Program-made: the position numbers and the translations under genes
The notes under the pieces: model-generated
What the model was told of the DNA's origin: nothing
The model's input: only the letters and a program-made list of their open reading frames with translations
Databases searched by the model: none
Origin: a virus
Taxonomy: Duplodnaviria; Heunggongvirae; Uroviricota; Caudoviricetes
DNA length: 6,000 nt
IMG/VR virus record: IMGVR_UViG_2778261058_000017
Location: 1 to 6,000 of that record
Reading direction: 5' to 3' (one strand)
In this document: positions 1-6,000 of the stretch, in pieces
Layout: the number at the start of each line of letters is the position of its first letter
Numbering within the stretch: position 1 is the stretch's first letter

Positions 1-235
1 AACACCCTCAGACATTATCAATTTTAGATATAGTATGTCCTTGGCGTAGATTTCTCAAGAGTGTAAACAAGGGGGGAGACTTATGCTGGAAACTTGGGAA
101 AAAGCGACTGTTATTTTGTTCAGTAAACACCATGTAAACACACTGCCAACTGGCAACCATTCAATACTCACACCATCGAACGGACTTCAGCTGACCGCGA
201 CCTGTTTCTTCATTCTCGGATAGCGGCATTCATCT

Positions 236-823
236 TTATGCTGGTTTTGCTGGCCAAGTGATGTCAGGTGCTTTCGATGTATCGACCTCCTGAAGTGCTT
301 TAATGTACCAAATCCACGCAATCAGACTCGTCTTATCTTCGTCGCTAATGATTCCCAATTGCAGTTCAGTTGTCCAGAAACTGATCTTTTCCTTAGCTTT
401 TACCAATAGAATAGCTTTTTGCTTATCAGCCACTTCAACATCAGCTGCATACTTAGCATTTGGGTCTGATACCCACTTTTTCCCATCCCATTTCTGGAAC
501 GGATCAGAAGGAGCAATATTGGTATAGCCATTATTAATAGGACCAATATAGTCGATAGTATGAGGCATACCGTCAGTAGTTGAATAAACTGTCTTACCTC
601 GATGGTCTTCTTTCAAGACCCATCCTCCATTTTCGAATACAGCAACCTTTCCTGTTAGTTCATTACCCGGATCAATATCGGTAGAATTACCCGGCATACT
701 GACGCCAATATTAATATATTCGTCTGACCATCCTATATATTCAAAAGTTACTATATCGTAGTAATAGCAGCGGATTTCACCCGGTTCCGTTGCCAGTCCA
801 TTTTCATCAAAAACAGGTTTCAT
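236..823 (-). CDS. Phage tail fibre assembly protein (lambda Tfa family)
   Basis: 195-aa ORF. Translation carries blocks I recall from lambda Tfa: EDHRGKTVY, YQKWNG-type FQKWDGKKWV, and C-terminal VDTSKAPDITWPAKP (lambda: VDTSTAPDIEWP). Start ATG 821-823 overlaps the stop of the upstream tail-fibre ORF (TAATG), the usual tail fibre to tfa coupling. Confidence 0.88.
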   Translation of the reverse strand: MKPVFDENGLATEPGEIRCYYYDIVTFEYIGWSDEYINIGVSMPGNSTDIDPGNELTGKVAVFENGGWVLKEDHRGKTVYSTTDGMPHTIDYIGPINNGYTNIAPSDPFQKWDGKKWVSDPNAKYAADVEVADKQKAILLVKAKEKISFWTTELQLGIISDEDKTSLIAWIWYIKALQEVDTSKAPDITWPAKPA

Positions 824-1635
824 TATTTAGCCCTTACTAAAAAGTTAAATGTGATATTGCGGGGACGTGTTTCGTTGCCTCCAGGATTTTGGAATGCAGG
901 TAAAGCTCCCCCTATCGGCTGACTGATTCCGTTGGTATATAAAGGAGCTGCATTCGATATTGTACCAAACACTACATTGCTACCATTTCCGCTTGTCCCT
1001 AAAAATTTATGCTCATGCATTTTGAAGTCATCTGCTTGTGCAGAAAGTAAGGTTCGCCCTCTATCCACCCCGCGCCCATCATCCCAGATACGAATAAAAT
1101 CACCCCGTGCGTCAGGTAATGCTAGCGCCGGAAACACTTTCGCCAGCACAGGGTAATCAGTGGCAGAGAATTTCGCGCCGTTGAACTTCAAAAACACCAT
1201 ACTGGACCAACTGTCGATTACAGTATTTGGCATTGCGGCGGACGGCCAGAAGAACGGAACACCAATAGCTGGAGCACCTTCTCCCAAACCAAGATTTTCG
1301 AGAGCCGTTTTCACCGTGCCATCCGATTTGATATCACCAAACGGATTCTTGCGGCTTAACAGCAGCGCGCGAAGTGCGGTACCAAAGGCAGCACCTTTTA
1401 GCTCCGCAAGACGTTCTGACCAGTCATGCGCCAGCGCGTTGTCTTCCGCCGTGTAATACGCAGCACATTTGGCGTTATCACCGTCAGTGAACAGATCCAG
1501 AACAAACGGGCCAAACAGGGTGTTAATTCCCCAGAAAATGTTATCCGGCGTGCGCCACTGATCGCCCACTTCCTTCAGTTCATGGGCTGGTTTGTTCCGC
1601 AGTTCGACCAGCGCCTGGCAATATTTATTACTCAT
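823..1635 (-). CDS. Chimeric ORF: N-terminal fragment of phage Dam-like N6-adenine methyltransferase (about aa 1-85) fused in frame to a phage tail-fibre C-terminal domain
   Basis: Likely start is ATG 1633-1635 (MSNKYCQ...), overlapping the stop of the upstream gene as TAATG, with a GGGGG Shine-Dalgarno-like run upstream; the GTG at 1668 in the ORF track is probably an over-extension. N-terminus has the W-x-TP ... NAK ... Y-T-x-ED ... W pattern of phage Dam-family methyltransferases but breaks off at GAAFG, exactly where the catalytic NPPY motif would follow. The remainder ends in [19 protein letters not shown], resembling the conserved C-terminus of P2/Mu/lambdoid tail fibres, and is coupled to the downstream tfa. 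Family assignments are from recalled motifs. Confidence 0.72.
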
Positions 1636-2123
1636 TAAGCCCCCACGTAATTCCCTGACAGATACCACTCATCACCCGGTACAGCGCGCTTGCTGCTTTT
1701 CCGTAAACACCGCTCACGACGCGCAAGAAAATTGTTTCGCTCTGGCTGGGAGTGGCTTTCACGGAATGCCGCCATCCACACCGTTGCAGCACGACGGTAT
1801 AAGCCCCTGGACTCCAGTTCTTCCGCCTGGCGGGTCAGGCACAAAATCACCCGCGGGTCGTTAGTGCCGACATAGAAATTGCGCACAGGTCTGGTTTCAC
1901 GAACTGGTTGTGGTTCCGGCTCCTGCGCTCTCTCAGTCAGGCGCGGGAAATGTCTGCGTGTATCTCCTTCACAACGGTGAGCCACACGCCCACTCTGACG
2001 TAACTTGCTTGCTGACTGCAGAACGCGCTGCCGTGAGTAACCTGCAAAAGCATCCGCAATGTCTCCGGAAGTACAGCCCGGATGGGCTTCAATGAATTTC
2101 TGAACGTCATTCAAAAGACTCAT
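1635..2123 (-). CDS. PerC/ANR-like domain protein (putative transcriptional regulator), prophage-encoded
   Basis: Open frame of 162 aa from ATG 2121-2123 (or 164 aa from the GTG at 2127-2129, which overlaps the O-like stop as GTGA). The C-terminal segment [21 protein letters not shown]...ARRERCL matches the recalled PerC/Pch/ANR signature (E-x-R-G-L-W/Y-R-R-A-A ... R-x-x-C). The N-terminal 60 aa could be a small helical DNA-binding domain. Stop overlaps the next start (TAATG). Confidence 0.65.
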
Positions 2124-2125
2124 GC

Positions 2126-3067
2126 TCACCCCCTGAATCCTGCCGGGATCTGGCTGTAGTCCACGTTGTCGTAACTGGCTTTGAAGTACGGGTCCTCGCG
2201 TTTTTCGGTGTACGTGCTGACGGACGGCGATAAGCGCAGGGAAAGCTCATCCCATTTTTCCCGCAGCTTCGACGGGCTGAGCACGTTACGGCACCAGAAC
2301 GGATCGCGACTGACGCGGCTGTACATCTCGCAGATTTGTTTATGAGTACGACCATCCTGCACACACATCAGGCGAATTTCGTTTGCCCAGGCTGTCCAGT
2401 TCGGTTCTTTGGGACGAACCACCTCGCCGTCACATTCGGCGGCATGCTCGTACAGGGCGATGATTTTTTTCCAGAGCCACTGTGCGCAGGTCAAATCATC
2501 CTGCGTCCCCCACTGGCGCTTTTTAGGGCTGAATACAACCGCATCAGGATGGCGAGTTAAAAAATCCTGTTCAGCCTTCTGCGTGTCCGGTTGCGAAGCG
2601 TCCGGACGAGAAGTTTTTTTATCTGACGGATCATGTTTTGATTTTACTGACGGATCCCCGCCAGATTCTGACGGGTGAAAACCCGCTTTTTTGCCAGATT
2701 TCGACGCATCAAATTTTGACGGGTCAGATTTTGATGCGTCAGATTTTGACGGGTCAGAATCTGACAGTTGAGAAAAAGCCGCAGCCTGAAGCTTCGCAAC
2801 GTTAAGCTGATAAACATTCGACGCATTGCGGTTACCCTGGCGACGCGCCTTACGCGTTAACCAGCCTTCTGCTTCCAGCCGTGCGATAGCCGTTCTGACG
2901 GTACTCATCCCCGCGCCAATCTGGCGGGCAATGGTTTCAATTGATGGCCAGCACACACCTTCGTCATTACTGAAATCAGCCAGGCGTGCCATAATTGCCA
3001 CGCTGGATAATTTCATGCCTGACGCTGCGCAACCATCCCATACATAGCCGGTTAATTTAGTGCTCAT
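2126..3067 (-). CDS. Phage replication initiator (lambda O-like), N-terminal winged-HTH DNA-binding domain, carrying internal iterons
   Basis: 313-aa ORF with ATG at 3065-3067 preceded by GAGG. The N-terminal about 90 aa look like the HTH domain typical of phage/plasmid replication initiators (SSVAIMARLADFSNDEGVCWPSIETIARQIGAGMSTVRTAIARLEAEGWL). The central low-complexity segment SDSDPSKSDASKSDPSKFDASKS is encoded by tandem 15-bp DNA repeats, as in lambda where ori lies inside O. Confidence 0.82.
   Translation of the reverse strand: MSTKLTGYVWDGCAASGMKLSSVAIMARLADFSNDEGVCWPSIETIARQIGAGMSTVRTAIARLEAEGWLTRKARRQGNRNASNVYQLNVAKLQAAAFSQLSDSDPSKSDASKSDPSKFDASKSGKKAGFHPSESGGDPSVKSKHDPSDKKTSRPDASQPDTQKAEQDFLTRHPDAVVFSPKKRQWGTQDDLTCAQWLWKKIIALYEHAAECDGEVVRPKEPNWTAWANEIRLMCVQDGRTHKQICEMYSRVSRDPFWCRNVLSPSKLREKWDELSLRLSPSVSTYTEKREDPYFKASYDNVDYSQIPAGFRG
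2621..2770. repeat. Putative replication origin iterons: about 8 copies of a 15-bp repeat (consensus near AGATTTTGACGGGTC) inside the O-like gene
   Basis: Five contiguous 15-bp units at 2695-2709, 2710-2724, 2725-2739, 2740-2754 and 2755-2769, plus three dispersed copies at 2621-2632, 2641-2656 and 2662-2677, all sharing the core TGACGG (TGATGC/CGACGC variants). DNA-level identity exceeds what the encoded Ser/Asp/Lys linker would need. Confidence 0.6.
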
Positions 3068-3076
3068 GACCGACCT

Positions 3077-3415
3077 CTATTTCCCTGAATTTACGACGAA
3101 ACTGTTCGAGCGGACTGAAGCATTCATGCTCATAGCCTTCGCGGAGGTAGATAACCCGTTGTGTTTCCGGCTCCCAACGAATGACTCTGACGGGTACTCC
3201 GTAGTGATCTTTGAACCAGCGGTTAACTTGTCGCAAAGGACTGTCTCCTTTTGCCGGTTAAAATCACCCACAGCCCACTCTGCAAAGCTGTGGGTTACAA
3301 TTACCCTGCCACCTGGTACATTCACTGCATAGCAATACTCCACCTTCGCTTTTCCACCCGGTACAGGAAGCGCAATCAGTTGCGAGCGACGGTAGTGTGT
3401 TGTTAAACTATTCAT
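3077..3415 (-). CDS. Hypothetical early-region protein, probably disrupted by a frameshift (intact form about 119 aa ending at 3062)
   Basis: 112-aa ORF with ATG 3413-3415 overlapping the upstream stop (ATGA). A second minus-strand frame is open from 3257 to 3062 and encodes a protein-like sequence ([60 protein letters not shown]) whose stop overlaps the O-like start. The two frames can be joined by a 1-nt indel at the T4/A4 homopolymer at 3249-3252. No family recognised. Confidence 0.5.
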
Positions 3416-3963
3416 GCGTTAGTTTCTCCACAGTCACGACACGCCACGGCGCCCGGAGCTGCACACTCGCGGGCGTCATTACTTTCTGAAATGCAAAAAA
3501 TTTTGTAGACCAGTGCTGCATGCTCCTGCAGCTTCGAAATTGAGAGGTACAGCTCGTCGTTAATTGCTGTCTTCTCATGCGGTTCCACTACACCGTCTTC
3601 AATTGCTGAACGAATCTGTTTTGAATAACTGCCGATCTGTTCAATGACCTCCAGCAGGCGTTGGTTGATATCGGCGTTGTCCACATCCTCGACATCAGGA
3701 AGAGACACAAAGACGCCATTTGCAGACTGCGCCACAGCGTCAGCAATGAAGTGAGTTCCACCAGCACGTTGCAAAATCATTGCCCATCCCAGCGGGAAAA
3801 TCTGATCGCCATCGGCACGAAGGCGGTTAAATAATGCGTTCTCTGTTACATCCAGCCAGTCAGCAGCTTCAGCGTACCCCCCCGGCAACGCTGCGATAGT
3901 TTTTCTGACAGCTTTCACGTACCACTCAGGCTGTTTTTCTACTTTCCAGTGATGCTTACCCAC
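3412..3963 (-). CDS. Phage regulatory protein in the CII position (resembles the 186-CII/CP76-type family), putative
   Basis: 183-aa ORF with GTG start at 3961-3963 preceded by AGGAGG at 6-nt spacing; overlaps the Cro-like gene by 8 nt. The N-terminal region has an HTH-like segment ([22 protein letters not shown]). Position immediately downstream of cro and size both fit long CII-type regulators. Family call is from recalled features and is tentative. Confidence 0.6.
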
Positions 3964-4216
3964 GGTTCACCTCCTGTTCCTGTGGTTTAAACCCATTCTG
4001 GTTTTGGCTAGATTGAAAACGTGCCGGATAAAGAATCTGCATTTCGCTGACTTCACCCTTAAAAAAATTGGCTAAACGTTCTGCAAGCTCGATAGATGGA
4101 ATCTGCTCCAGCCTCTCAATACGACTCAACGTCGCTGGATTGACTTGAACACCCGCAGCAACATGCTGCAAAGTGAAACCATGCGCCTTACGCACATTTC
4201 GTAATGGTGATTGCAT
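3956..4216 (-). CDS. Cro-like HTH (XRE-family) transcriptional regulator
   Basis: 86-aa ORF with ATG 4214-4216 preceded by GGAGG (complement of 4222-4226). HTH segment FTLQHVAAGVQVNPATLSRIERLEQIPSIELAERLANFF. Divergent from the CI-like repressor across a 97-bp operator region. Confidence 0.8.
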   Translation of the reverse strand: MQSPLRNVRKAHGFTLQHVAAGVQVNPATLSRIERLEQIPSIELAERLANFFKGEVSEMQILYPARFQSSQNQNGFKPQEQEVNRG

Positions 4217-4313
4217 ATGTCCTCCAAATATTGCGCGTTATGCATGTTATTTCACGCAATTATTTTGCGCAAGTTGATTTGCTTATCACGCAATAAAGAA
4301 ATGTAATAAACGC
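4217..4313. promoter_or_regulatory. Divergent promoter/operator region (OR-like) between the Cro-like and CI-like genes
   Basis: Two similarly built 29-bp sites: TTGCGCG-N15-CACGCAA (4231-4259) and TTGCGCA-N15-CACGCAA (4265-4293), with half-sites 22 bp apart. Candidate leftward promoter: -35 TTGCGC (complement of 4267-4272) and -10 TAACAT (complement of 4244-4249). Candidate promoter for the repressor: -35 TTGCTT 4279-4284 and -10 TGTAAT 4302-4307, ending 6 nt before the ATG, and no Shine-Dalgarno sequence, suggesting a leaderless mRNA as for lambda cI from PRM. Confidence 0.65.
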
Positions 4314-5006
4314 ATGAACATAGGAAACCGAGTCAGACAACTTCGCCAAGCGAAGAACATGAAAATCGCCGATCTCGCTGAAGCAATAGGAGTAGATGCG
4401 GCGAACATCTCGCGCTTAGAAACGGGTAAGCAAAAACAATTTACCGAACAAACACTGAGTAATATTGCCAAGAGCTTAGGTGTTGATATTGCTGATCTCT
4501 TTACCTCTGCCCACAAAAGTAATACTGTATATAAAAACAGTAATAATGAGGATGTTGCGCAGGTGAAGGATGTGTTCCGTATTGAAATGCTGGATATCAG
4601 TGCCAGTGCGGGAAATGGCCTTATCCAGGGCGGTGATGTCATTGATGTGATTCATGCCATCGAATACAGAACTGATAATGCTGTATCAATGTTCGGCGGA
4701 CGACCAGCCAATCACATCAAAGTTATCAACGTTCGTGGGGACAGTATGTGTCCAACCATTGAGCCAGGAGATCTCATCTTCGTTGATGTCAGCATCAATC
4801 AGTTTGATGGTGATGGTATATATGTCTTTGGTTTTGATGACAAAATATACGTTAAAAGACTTCAAATGATTCCTGACAAACTGCTGGTGATTTCTGATAA
4901 CCAGATTTACCGTGAATGGGGAATTACTAGCGAAAACGAACACCGATTCATGGTCTTTGGAAAGGTCTTAATCAGTCAGTCGCAAACCCTTAAGAGACAT
5001 AATTAA
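4314..5006 (+). CDS. CI-like prophage repressor: N-terminal HTH (XRE) plus C-terminal LexA-type S24 peptidase autocleavage domain
   Basis: 230-aa ORF. N-terminal HTH (IADLAEAIGVDAANISRLETG). Putative Ala99-Gly100 cleavage site (SASAGNG). Ser144 in GDSM and Lys181 in YVKRL, with the Ser-Lys spacing of 37 that I recall for LexA. Confidence 0.92.
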   Translation: MNIGNRVRQLRQAKNMKIADLAEAIGVDAANISRLETGKQKQFTEQTLSNIAKSLGVDIADLFTSAHKSNTVYKNSNNEDVAQVKDVFRIEMLDISASAGNGLIQGGDVIDVIHAIEYRTDNAVSMFGGRPANHIKVINVRGDSMCPTIEPGDLIFVDVSINQFDGDGIYVFGFDDKIYVKRLQMIPDKLLVISDNQIYREWGITSENEHRFMVFGKVLISQSQTLKRHN

Positions 5007-5026
5007 CCTCAATATCCCATCCATCG

Positions 5027-5047
5027 GCCACCGAAAGGTGGCTTTTT
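5027..5047 (+). terminator. Rho-independent terminator downstream of the CI-like gene
   Basis: Perfect 6-bp stem GCCACC (5027-5032), loop GAAA, GGTGGC (5037-5042), followed by TTTTT (5043-5047), 20 nt after the repressor stop. Confidence 0.7.
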
Positions 5048-5063
5048 ATTACCTATAAAGTTA

Positions 5064-5097
5064 CATATCTCGCAAATATTACTTGCATATCTCGCAA
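5064..5097. promoter_or_regulatory. Putative secondary (OL-like) operator: direct repeat of CATATCTCGCAA, 22 bp apart
   Basis: Identical 12-mers at 5064-5075 and 5086-5097. The 10-bp core TATCTCGCAA matches the OR half-site TATCACGCAA (4284-4293) at 9 of 10 positions. A possible promoter overlaps (-35 TTGCAT 5083-5088, -10 TATCTT 5106-5111). Confidence 0.4.
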
Positions 5098-5260
5098 TTT
5101 AATTTTATCTTTTGTTCCAGACCAACTACAGGATTACAACAAAATCTGGTTGCAACACGGTGCATGTGTCGTAAGCAGTCAGTAAATGTCAAAAACGAAC
5201 AGGCAGGACGCCCACGAAGTAGCCGCCTGGGGCATATGAAGTCTAGGGTGATTCGTTAGC

Positions 5261-5286
5261 AACAAAAAAGCGCCCTACAGGACGCT
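5261..5286 (-). terminator. Hairpin plus T-run: candidate intrinsic terminator on the minus strand (alternatively a boxB-like hairpin of a plus-strand antitermination site)
   Basis: Stem AGCGCCC (5269-5275), loop TACA, GGACGCT (5280-5286), with one mismatch. On the minus strand it is followed by TTTTTTGTT (complement of 5261-5269). On the plus strand it lies 2 nt upstream of the boxA-like element. Confidence 0.4.
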
Positions 5287-5288
5287 TA

Positions 5289-5301
5289 GCTCTTTAACAA
5301 T
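5289..5301 (+). promoter_or_regulatory. boxA-like element GCTCTTTAACAAT (NusB/NusE-binding type antitermination signal)
   Basis: 13-nt run matching the recalled E. coli rrn leader boxA (TGCTCTTTAACAATTTATCA) and the boxA consensus GCTCTT(T)A. It sits in the plus-strand leader about 45 nt upstream of the small ORF at 5346, i.e. in the position of nutL relative to cI in lambda. Confidence 0.5.
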
Positions 5302-5345
5302 CTGGTCCCCATCAACAAGTAACTGATAACTTGAGGAGGTGTGAA

Positions 5346-5552
5346 ATGCACAAAACAGAACCCAAAATCGTCGCGCCCGGATACACAAATGAGGAAATTT
5401 ACGAGTGGATGGCAAAGAAGCTGGCAGCTATAAACCAGCTTCGTGAAGTGCTGTCTTATCGACAGGAAACAATAGACTCCTTAAAAAAACTGGATCAGGA
5501 AATCACGGTTTTATCACAGGATGTTACTTTAGATATTGTGCAGACAAATTAG
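5346..5552 (+). CDS. Small hypothetical protein (68 aa), predicted helical; first gene downstream of the cI-distal operator/boxA leader
   Basis: ATG at 5346 preceded by a strong GAGGAGG (5333-5339) at 6-nt spacing; the TTG at 5331 in the ORF track is unlikely to be the start. Not Arg-rich, so not an N-like antiterminator. Its 3' end overlaps the convergent minus-strand gene by 29 nt. Confidence 0.55.
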   Translation: MHKTEPKIVAPGYTNEEIYEWMAKKLAAINQLREVLSYRQETIDSLKKLDQEITVLSQDVTLDIVQTN

Positions 5553-6000
5553 GATCCCATTCATTTTCGTCAAAATCATCAAAGTGATGAATTTGTGATC
5601 TCCAGTCTCGATAATCTAAAAATTTCTGGGCGGTTACGCTTATTTTATCAAGTGTGAGTTCATCCTGAATTGAAAGAAGAAGTTCATCAAATTTCATCTC
5701 ATTAATCTGTTTTGGCATCCAGTGATGCTTCATCAGAATAAGGTGAACCAGAGCCTTTTTCCCATTCAACTGATTATAGGGAGTGCCGAATTTCTTCCGG
5801 TGCTCATGTAAGACAAGGTCCAGAAGAGTAAGTAATGTTGCCCTTGATTCCACTTTGCTTATTTCGACTGATGACACTACCCCACTGATTTCAATGCCCC
5901 GATACTTTCCAACATTTTCACAGTGGGATTTGTACAGCGTGTATGTTAGCGCCAGTGATATAAGACGGTAATTCACCATTTGGATTGTCCGCTCCACCCA
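5524..6000 (-). CDS. Hypothetical protein, AT-rich accessory (moron-like) gene; 5' end probably beyond the window
   Basis: Open frame from the window edge to the TAA stop at 5524-5526, at least 158 codons. The GTG at 5997 and the ATG at 5977-5979 are possible but unconvincing starts. Lower GC than the replication genes, by eye. Oriented against the putative early-left transcript. No family recognised. Confidence 0.6.
   Translation of the reverse strand, partial: WVERTIQMVNYRLISLALTYTLYKSHCENVGKYRGIEISGVVSSVEISKVESRATLLTLLDLVLHEHRKKFGTPYNQLNGKKALVHLILMKHHWMPKQINEMKFDELLLSIQDELTLDKISVTAQKFLDYRDWRSQIHHFDDFDENEWDPNLSAQYLK

Follow-up and report, generated by a model that had tools for sequence, protein, structure and literature searches.

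Positions 5061-5111 of IMGVR_UViG_2778261058_000017 (positions 1 to 6,000 of the record, a stretch of 6,000 nucleotides referred to here as the window) probably contain the left operator and left promoter (OL/PL) of a lambdoid prophage with SfII-type immunity, belonging to the SfV/e14/CPS-53 group; from the sequence, a probability of about 0.8 is placed on this reading. The element is unannotated until now, yet ordinary for a lambdoid phage. The window as a whole spans such a prophage's immunity and early region. Positions 3900-5257 share 99.2% DNA identity with Shigella phage SfII, mEp460 and several Stx2-converting phages have the same immunity region at ~90% identity, and a repressor identical to that of the window is encoded on a Shigella flexneri chromosome. 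The repressor matches HTH_3 (1.2e-11) and Peptidase_S24 (6e-19) in Pfam, and an Ala-Gly cleavage site and Ser and Lys residues can be recognized in it by eye. The original prediction, made from the letters of the window, had proposed an OL/PL-like cluster of sites downstream of the repressor gene that overlaps a candidate plus-strand promoter. This core claim is backed by the conserved layout of the region, by a switch of motif between immunity types and by a footprint among 55 alleles. Coordinates of all features are collected in Table 1.

The repeats that defined the cluster are as initially described: CATATCTCGCAA occurs exactly at 5064-5075 and 5086-5097, 22 bp from start to start and just past the hairpin stem and T run of the repressor terminator, and the core, TATCTCGCAA, is one base off the right operator (OR) half-site TATCACGCAA (4284-4293). 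Allowing up to two mismatches to CATATCTCGCAA adds only 4282-4293 (plus strand) and 4231-4242 (minus strand) in the whole 6 kb, both of them in the cro-cI intergenic region; these four matches compare with 0.56 expected, and none of 200 shuffles reached four. The repeat unit exceeds that of the first reading. A repeat finder returns a 16-nt family, TTGCWTATCWCGCAAT, at 4279-4294, 5061-5076 and 5083-5098, with an inverted copy at 4230-4250, of which 4230-4245 make up the 16-nt unit, and again none of 200 shuffles reached the family count. Expressed as a dyad, TTRC-N7-GCAW has exactly four sites in the window, those listed as OR sites a and b, OL2 and OL1, and all four are confined to the two intergenic regions flanking cI. 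The operators are thus 15-bp dyads with the consensus TTGCR-N5-YGCAW, two in OR and two after cI, which is the distribution that an OL/PL element calls for. OL1 and OR site b are identical at 13 of 15 positions, and the centre-to-centre distance between OL1 and OL2 is 22 bp, or two helical turns.

Both OR sites are conserved in position, site a in five diverged relatives and site b, together with the -10 hexamer TGTAAT of the candidate repressor maintenance promoter (PRM), in all relatives. Two 13-nt tandem half-site repeats, TTATTTCACGCAA and TTATTTTGCGCAA, lie between the full OR dyads (4247-4272), and a palindrome in the same interval, TTGCGCAA, is kept in all relatives and also serves as the -35 of the right promoter (PR); it may be a weak third operator that needs cooperativity. 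The repressor terminator is annotated as a putative rho-independent terminator in SfII, and a hairpin and T run are present in all relatives. Rfam contains nothing matching the operators or the leader in the whole window or in 5100-5350 at E values up to 10; the output consists only of a chance mir-5880 match on the replication-origin iterons and minus-strand generic terminator look-alikes.

Candidate promoters were ranked with a weighted score of our own construction that uses approximate base frequencies. On this scale, the PL candidate scores 8.9 bits, the top value on either strand in 5030-5200 and rank 16 among all window positions, which places it near PR and above PRM. A consensus scan reports only matches of at least 9 of 12 positions, and PL, PR and PRM each fall below that threshold. 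PL and PRM are alike in that the -35 hexamer is the left arm of an operator, and OL1-PL has the same layout as OR site b-PRM: a 16-nt site, 7 nt and a -10-like hexamer. PL is best described as a putative, moderately strong promoter that is organized much like the PRM side of OR, and its transcript would start near 5118. Only 6 nt separate the PRM -10 from the ATG of cI and no Shine-Dalgarno sequence is present, which makes a leaderless cI mRNA probable. The cI mRNA of lambda is leaderless.

Comparison with other prophages indicates that the layout is maintained across five genera (67-92% repressor identity), Shigella among them. Relatives were sought in one genome per species, and repressor relatives were found in Citrobacter (92% and 75% identity), Trabulsiella (68%) and Buttiauxella (67%), in addition to two decayed remnants. 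In all intact relatives, the cI stop codon is followed by a hairpin and T run, the distal site, 7-8 nt and a full dyad with a TTGCxx hexamer inside its span. All of them also have a full dyad as the distal site except Citrobacter amalonaticus (the 75% relative), in which it is degenerate. A spacer of 17 nt then leads to TATCTT in Citrobacter braakii/FP75 and Buttiauxella, while the -10 is TATCAT in C. amalonaticus and TATGGT in Trabulsiella. The two sites are unlike each other in the relatives, e.g., TTGCGCATTACGCAT and TTGCGCATTTCGCAA in Buttiauxella, and keep the arms TTGCR and YGCAW, and the OR dyads are found at the same two positions in all relatives.

The sequence of the element changes with the repressor across immunity types (SfV, SfIV and Kati), as is expected of OL/PL. 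SfV and SfIV have flanking genes in common with the window and differ in cI and cro. Past their cI terminator is a TTGACA hexamer, 16 nt and CATAAT, overlapped by TGTAC-N7-RTACA sites; this is the motif of the SfV/SfIV OR and is not present in the window. In phage Kati, the repressor is of yet another, third kind, and so is the repeat, which surrounds TTGCCA-17-TAGATT. Within ~20 nt of the -10, the sequences of all three immunity types become the same again, and the operator-promoter is therefore the last piece of an exchangeable immunity module, as is lambda OL/PL. The immunity types are separated by counts of the dyad pattern; a best-13-mer matrix comparing OR and OL across phages discriminates poorly in AT-rich DNA.

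Natural variation was assessed in the 125 nt that follow cI, of which viral contigs and genomes whose repressor is almost identical provide 55 distinct versions. Departures from the majority base number 0 to 3 per position in the dyad arms and 0 to 1 across 5098-5113, an interval that includes the -10 (altered in one variant), compared with 9 to 19 in the OL2 centre, 8 to 19 in the inter-site spacer and 7 in the OL1 centre. This pattern is what a promoter, and a helix-turn-helix dimer making its contacts in the arms, should leave as a footprint. The polymorphism hotspots (5066-5070, 5077-5080 and 5091) are located in the operator centres and the spacer, and up to 19 of the 55 versions differ at a single position there, while the repressor gene is almost invariant. 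They could reflect tuning of operator affinity or frequent short-patch recombination.

The original prediction also suggested that an early-left operon begins at this promoter, and related prophages bear this out, as they carry yfdP-yfdT, xis and int downstream. In an Escherichia coli prophage that is 99% identical to the window over 1380-5940, a 68-amino-acid open reading frame (ORF) on the plus strand is followed by a convergent ECs1072-family gene and then by yfdP, yfdQ, yfdR, yfdT, an excisionase-like gene and the integrase gene; the window ends before yfdP. Since genes on the same strand continue to xis and int, early-left operon is the right term. Furthermore, the position after OL/PL is marked independently as the start of an early transcript by a leader RNA that is found behind strong promoters elsewhere.

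These features suggest how the element would operate. The CI-like repressor would bind OL1 and OL2 as dimers, probably cooperatively, and Cro probably also binds the OL sites. Repressor on OL1 would cover the PL -35 and block RNA polymerase, leaving the early-left operon silent in the lysogen; with OL1 over the -35 and part of the spacer, and OL2 upstream, the arrangement should be enough for repression by occlusion. Self-cleavage of the repressor after SOS induction would allow PL to fire and to produce a transcript with a ~230-nt leader, containing the structured RNA at 5195-5258 and boxA, followed by the early-left genes as far as xis and int. Binding, cooperativity, repression, promoter activity and the start site are all predictions from the DNA sequence.

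Several observations weigh against this interpretation. The PL candidate matches 7 of 12 consensus positions and is unreported by the consensus scan, and neither its -10 nor its start is covered by any OL site, unlike in lambda, in which OL1 covers the -10. A minus-strand promoter-like site at 5125-5096 overlaps PL and equals it in score; it is not conserved in mEp460-type relatives and was therefore discounted. The gap between the -10 and the leader RNA is 83 nt in the SfII immunity type, compared with 13-25 nt in most contexts of that RNA. In addition, the window alone among the 55 variants has TTAC for TTGC in the left arm of OL2 (a G-to-A change), and this change and the probably defective state of the prophage may have weakened this particular copy. 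No operator, footprint or start-site data were found in the literature for SfII, SfV, SfIV or e14 after ymfK.

The modest promoter match, missed by the consensus scan, and the placement of the sites, which extend from upstream of the -35 across it and leave the -10 and start uncovered, would also suit genuine repressor sites that act mainly as auxiliary operators, looping to OR ~0.8 kb away and thereby tightening PR repression and PRM control, with the early-left transcript starting elsewhere or arising from cI read-through. Lambda OL serves OR through looping. A purely auxiliary role is nevertheless improbable: between cI and the sites stands a strong terminator, conservation of the -10 and spacer equals that of the operator arms, and in phages of other immunity types the corresponding place is taken by an unmistakable TTGACA promoter. 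Looping and promoter control can also coexist. A slightly smaller chance is given to binding by a regulator other than CI, either the CII-like protein YmfL, activating through TTGC repeats, or Cro alone. Lambda CII reads TTGC repeats flanking a -35; the arms of the sites similarly start with TTGC, and a CII-family gene (Phage_CP76) is present in the window. However, the sites are inverted dyads, TTGC-N7-GCAA, and not direct TTGC-N6-TTGC repeats, and the same dyads occur in OR at the PR and PRM positions, at which both Cro and the repressor have to act. An equivalent gene occupies the same position downstream of cro in SfIV and SfV, yet the sites of these phages switch with cI and cro.

It is very unlikely that the cluster is a functionless local duplication of 22 bp with a fortuitous resemblance to OR, and this explanation is already disfavoured. 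The copies are indeed direct repeats with a 12-nt exact core, and contig L039 has lost exactly one 22-bp operator unit, as slippage or repeat recombination predicts, but the motif statistics contradict such an origin, two sites persist where they differ from each other (for instance, the Buttiauxella pair TTGCGCATTACGCAT and TTGCGCATTTCGCAA), and conservation applies to the arms rather than to the whole unit. Identification of the element as OL/PL is therefore preferred.

As an OL/PL, the element resembles that of lambda in having OR-type dyads at the far side of the repressor operon, over a promoter that points away from cI, and in belonging to an exchangeable immunity region with a LexA-like self-cleaving helix-turn-helix repressor and an operon that continues to xis and int. 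The PRM layout, which fits a leaderless cI mRNA, is a further similarity. The window differs from lambda in having two 15-bp sites (TTGCR-N5-YGCAW) rather than three, in the coverage of the -35, and not the -10, by the proximal site, and in the absence of rexAB between cI and OL, so that OL is ~0.8 kb from OR. It also has no N gene and no nutL with boxB, and its leader contains a different conserved RNA. Other close systems are SfV (GenBank U82619, 'putative operator region') and the ymfK/ymfT switch of e14, which belong to the same phage group, have the same gene order and possess an equivalent promoter and repeats after the repressor gene, followed by the same leader RNA. Unlike the window, however, they have repeats of the form TGTAC-N7-RTACA and a TTGACA promoter close to consensus as PL. 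The SfV and e14 records label OR alone as an operator region and leave the element after cI unannotated.

The leader RNA is predicted to form a three-way junction, and its support comes from covariation among 76 distinct copies. P1 and P3 covary strongly, and seven pairs show compensatory changes. P1 occurs as ACGAA/UUCGU, GCGAA/UUCGC, CCACC/GGUGG, UCAUC/GAUGA and GGAAC/GUUCC, and each of the three variable pairs of P3 is found in all four Watson-Crick forms. Paired cells amount to 95.6%, versus 73.6% after shuffling, and the covariation score is 0.547, versus 0.138; none of 500 shuffles reached 0.547, and slid controls gave values of ≤0.11. RNAalifold recovers P3 unaided. The loops, of which CCCACGAAGUAG is one, are nearly invariant; the near-invariance of P2 and the loops partly reflects how the copies were collected. 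The window has GGGUGA where the consensus is GGAUGA. Folding energy is no better than that of shuffled sequences (z = -0.16 for the RNA alone and +0.89 for the whole leader), and it is consequently covariation that carries the structure. A strand test counted 10 G-U and 19 A-C cells, and the strand was assigned from the position of the RNA behind promoters. With R1, the covariance model, the window's copy reaches 89 bits and that of e14 in E. coli K-12 reaches 72 bits.

The RNA is widespread. An exact 17-mer from it is present in more than 120 viral contigs among the matches listed, and distant blastn searches place it in 51 phage records, including SfV, SfII, SfIV, ST64B, phiNP, ZF40, mEp237 and SPN3UB, most with a single copy. 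The core also occurs in the T5-like Providencia phages KY363465, NC_041913 and MW057857, in one case inside an annotated repeat region, so the motif extends beyond lambdoid phages. Of 109 distinct contexts, 106 have a promoter scoring at least 8 bits within 144 nt upstream, and in about three quarters of these 106 the distance from the end of the -10 to P1 is 13-25 nt. An S24-type ORF ends 83-196 nt upstream on the same strand in 52 of the 109; PL-side placement applies to the contexts with this upstream repressor ORF, and the remainder could be PR-side. The e14 copy (contig L219, 7107-7184, minus strand; MG1655 1,202,106-1,202,183) lies between ymfK and ymfJ, directly behind an SfV-type promoter. 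In SfV, a plus-strand terminator is annotated ~470 nt beyond the leader RNA; an RNA that acts by antitermination would need to get past it.

The placement of the RNA invites comparison with the put sites of HK022, which suppress terminators in cis via the zinc-binding domain of the beta-prime subunit, without protein factors. HK022 is a phage lacking N in which putL sits shortly downstream of PL (PMC9378689). The leader RNA is similar to HK022 PL-putL and the putL-like RNA of HK639 as a conserved structured RNA of ~65-75 nt just past PL (PMC9378689; HK639 annotation). Both occur in lambdoid phages without N and are followed by variable sequence with no conserved expression platform, and the location of the window's RNA, just past an early promoter in a phage without N, is that of a put site. 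Homology to an HK022-type put is nevertheless not supported: R1 finds nothing above noise at HK022 putL or putR or at the HK639 putL-like RNA, and blastn provides no link between the leader RNA and put sites (putL and putR were read from the HK022 genome, with the putL numbering checked against PMC9378689). In addition, the leader RNA is predicted as a closed three-way junction, whereas put consists of two adjacent stem-loops, and only the strings CGAAC..GGC and GGAUGA are shared with putL. In putL, GGAUGA falls within the apical loop and closing pairs of stem II, and in the leader RNA within a junction strand.

The core sequence of the leader RNA was not found in a literature search, which did not extend to the King 2011 survey of put sites, and its absence from Rfam says little about novelty because Rfam also lacks HK022 put. 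On sequence grounds, it appears to be a distinct conserved structured RNA that could be matched to no described family. Its most likely role would be cis-acting antitermination, or some other effect exerted directly on the transcription complex, given its position, the lack of a conserved downstream partner sequence and the absence of N. More specifically, and only tentatively, it may represent an undescribed class of cis-acting processive antiterminator that performs the job of HK022 put with a different fold in lambdoid phages without N, a proposal considered less likely than its alternatives. With such an RNA, polymerase would be able to pass the terminators and convergent moron genes of the early-left operon on its way to xis and int. 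A study from 2025 on related lambdoid phages, which lack N and have early-left operons like those of ST64B and phiNP, only supposes a put-like mechanism (PMC12315714).

A boxA in the leader had been offered as further support for an early-left operon. The boxA itself is real, with 0.03 matches within one mismatch expected by chance, and GCTCTTTAACAA is presumably the rrn-type boxA core; as evidence it is weak, since it belongs to an optional module and neither N nor boxB is seen. The recurring module (5263-5300) follows the leader RNA and comprises an A-rich run, a hairpin (AAGCGNCC-loop-GGNCGCTT) and boxA, of the form A or C followed by GCTCTTTAACAAT. It is also present, before different convergent minus-strand genes, in contigs L002, L008, L009, L166, L199 and L216. 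SfIV, PhiR29_1, Kati and several viral contigs have the hairpin-boxA module, and SfII and SfV lack it. The module may be of benefit to transcription from PL, but given its absence from these two phages it is not a general solution. Leaders of rrn operons have boxB and then boxA, and the window resembles them in the complete boxA core and the hairpin directly upstream. It differs from rrn boxA leaders and nut sites in that the hairpin is better suited to termination on the opposite strand, no boxB follows boxA, there is no N, and the module is missing from the closely related functional phages SfII and SfV. On the plus strand, a G-U pair of the minus-strand hairpin becomes a C-A mismatch and there is no U tract; the hairpin gives weak terminator-like Rfam alignments and recurs with different minus-strand genes. 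No boxB-like hairpin was seen after boxA in the sequence or in the fold of the whole leader, although no dedicated search for boxB was made. Of the components of an N/nut system, the window thus shows boxA but neither a boxB nor an N-type arginine-rich protein.

The first 55 nt of the leader (5112-5166) are common to mEp460, Stx2a_1447 and Citrobacter relatives (L004-L006, L011 and L012). These relatives continue into another long leader (…ACGGCGTATGGCACATGCGTCGTTAGCGGTCTG…GTTAAAGGG…) without the RNA motif, which may be a second, alternative leader element. One contig (L190) contains both the alternative leader and the RNA motif.

Table 1. Features of the immunity and early-left region of the window
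Feature	Position	Strand	Description and basis
OR site a, TTGCGCGTTATGCAT	4231-4245	.	Motif; lies over the PR candidate's -10 and predicted start
PR candidate	-35, 4272-4267; -10, 4249-4244	-	TTGCGC, 17 nt, TAACAT; 9.2 bits, rank 10 in the window
OR site b, TTGCTTATCACGCAA	4279-4293	.	Motif; left arm is the -35 of the PRM candidate
PRM candidate	-10, 4302-4307	+	TTGCTT, 17 nt, TGTAAT; 6.8 bits
cI-like repressor gene	4314-5006	+	230 aa; XRE-type helix-turn-helix and S24 LexA-like self-cleaving domain
Repressor-gene intrinsic terminator	5026-5048	+	GGCCACC-GAAA-GGTGGCT, then TTTTT; stem 5026-5043
OL2, distal operator, TTACATATCTCGCAA	5061-5075	.	Motif and allele comparison
OL1, proximal operator, TTGCATATCTCGCAA	5083-5097	.	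Motif; left arm is the PL -35
PL candidate	5083-5111	+	-35 TTGCAT 5083-5088, 17-nt spacer, -10 TATCTT 5106-5111
Structured leader RNA	5195-5258	+	64 nt, predicted three-way junction; covariation; one copy in the window
Leader RNA P1	5195-5199 with 5254-5258	+	ACGAA with TTCGT
Leader RNA P2	5202-5207 with 5223-5227	+	GGC-A-GG with CCGCC
Leader RNA P3	5228-5230 with 5243-5245	+	TGG with CTA
Intrinsic terminator, AAGCGTCC-TGTA-GGGCGCTT then TTTTTTGTT	5268-5287	-	Stops transcripts of the convergent ECs1072-type gene
boxA-like, GCTCTTTAACAA	5289-5300	+	12/12 match to the boxA core, directly 3' of the hairpin
68-aa ORF	5346-5552	+	phrog_1744, hypothetical protein in E. coli; first gene on the plus strand past the leader
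ECs1072-family gene	5524-5958	-	144 aa, convergent; phrog_5286; moron-like insert between PL and the yfdP-int genes

Two ORFs occupy the remainder of the window beyond the leader, and they converge with an overlap of 29 nt. The 68-amino-acid product has no arginine-rich motif and is not N-like. Neither it nor the ECs1072-family product has a Pfam match, and a defence role for the convergent gene was rejected, as PADLOC gives no match for either ORF. Other minus-strand genes occupy the same spot in other phages, e.g., SfII_36, mEp460_036/037 and ymfI in e14, and the site after the PL leader is therefore a hotspot for convergent moron-like inserts.

Upstream of cI, the minus strand encodes tail-fibre assembly, a Dam-like ORF with a tail-fibre-like C terminus, PerC/YfdN, an O-like replication gene with iterons, a small DUF4222 gene, a CII-family gene (ymfL) and cro. 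Pfam places ymfL in a CII family (Phage_CP76); a published comparison of SfII, SfV and SfIV lists no N, cII or cIII homologues (PMC3851460). Units of the TCAGATTTTGACGGG type form direct and inverted repeats at 2690-2770, inside the O-like replication gene, where they appear in the protein as a DPSKSDASKS repeat, and are probably origin iterons. The ORF at 823-1668 (minus strand) starts like a phage Dam methyltransferase and, as read by eye, ends like a tail fibre, with a junction near 1380. E. coli genomes align with the window only from 1380 onward, so a deletion joined the early region to the tail-fibre genes at this junction inside the methyltransferase gene, and the prophage is probably defective. 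The yfdM/yfdL remnant of CPS-53 in K-12 is a similar case.

Recognition of OL/PL would complete the regulatory map of a very common immunity type, which is found in the serotype-converting phage SfII, in Stx2-converting phages and in many E. coli prophages, and would supply the consensus TTGCR-N5-YGCAW needed for predicting immunity groups and for designing induction and repression experiments. The leader RNA replaces boxA as the leader feature of interest and has a potentially larger payoff than OL/PL itself. It points to one conserved RNA that would be transcribed first in the early-left operons of lambdoid phages without N, across immunity types, and it would reduce the question of early antitermination in such phages to a simple read-through assay, which could be performed even with the e14 copy of E. 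coli K-12.

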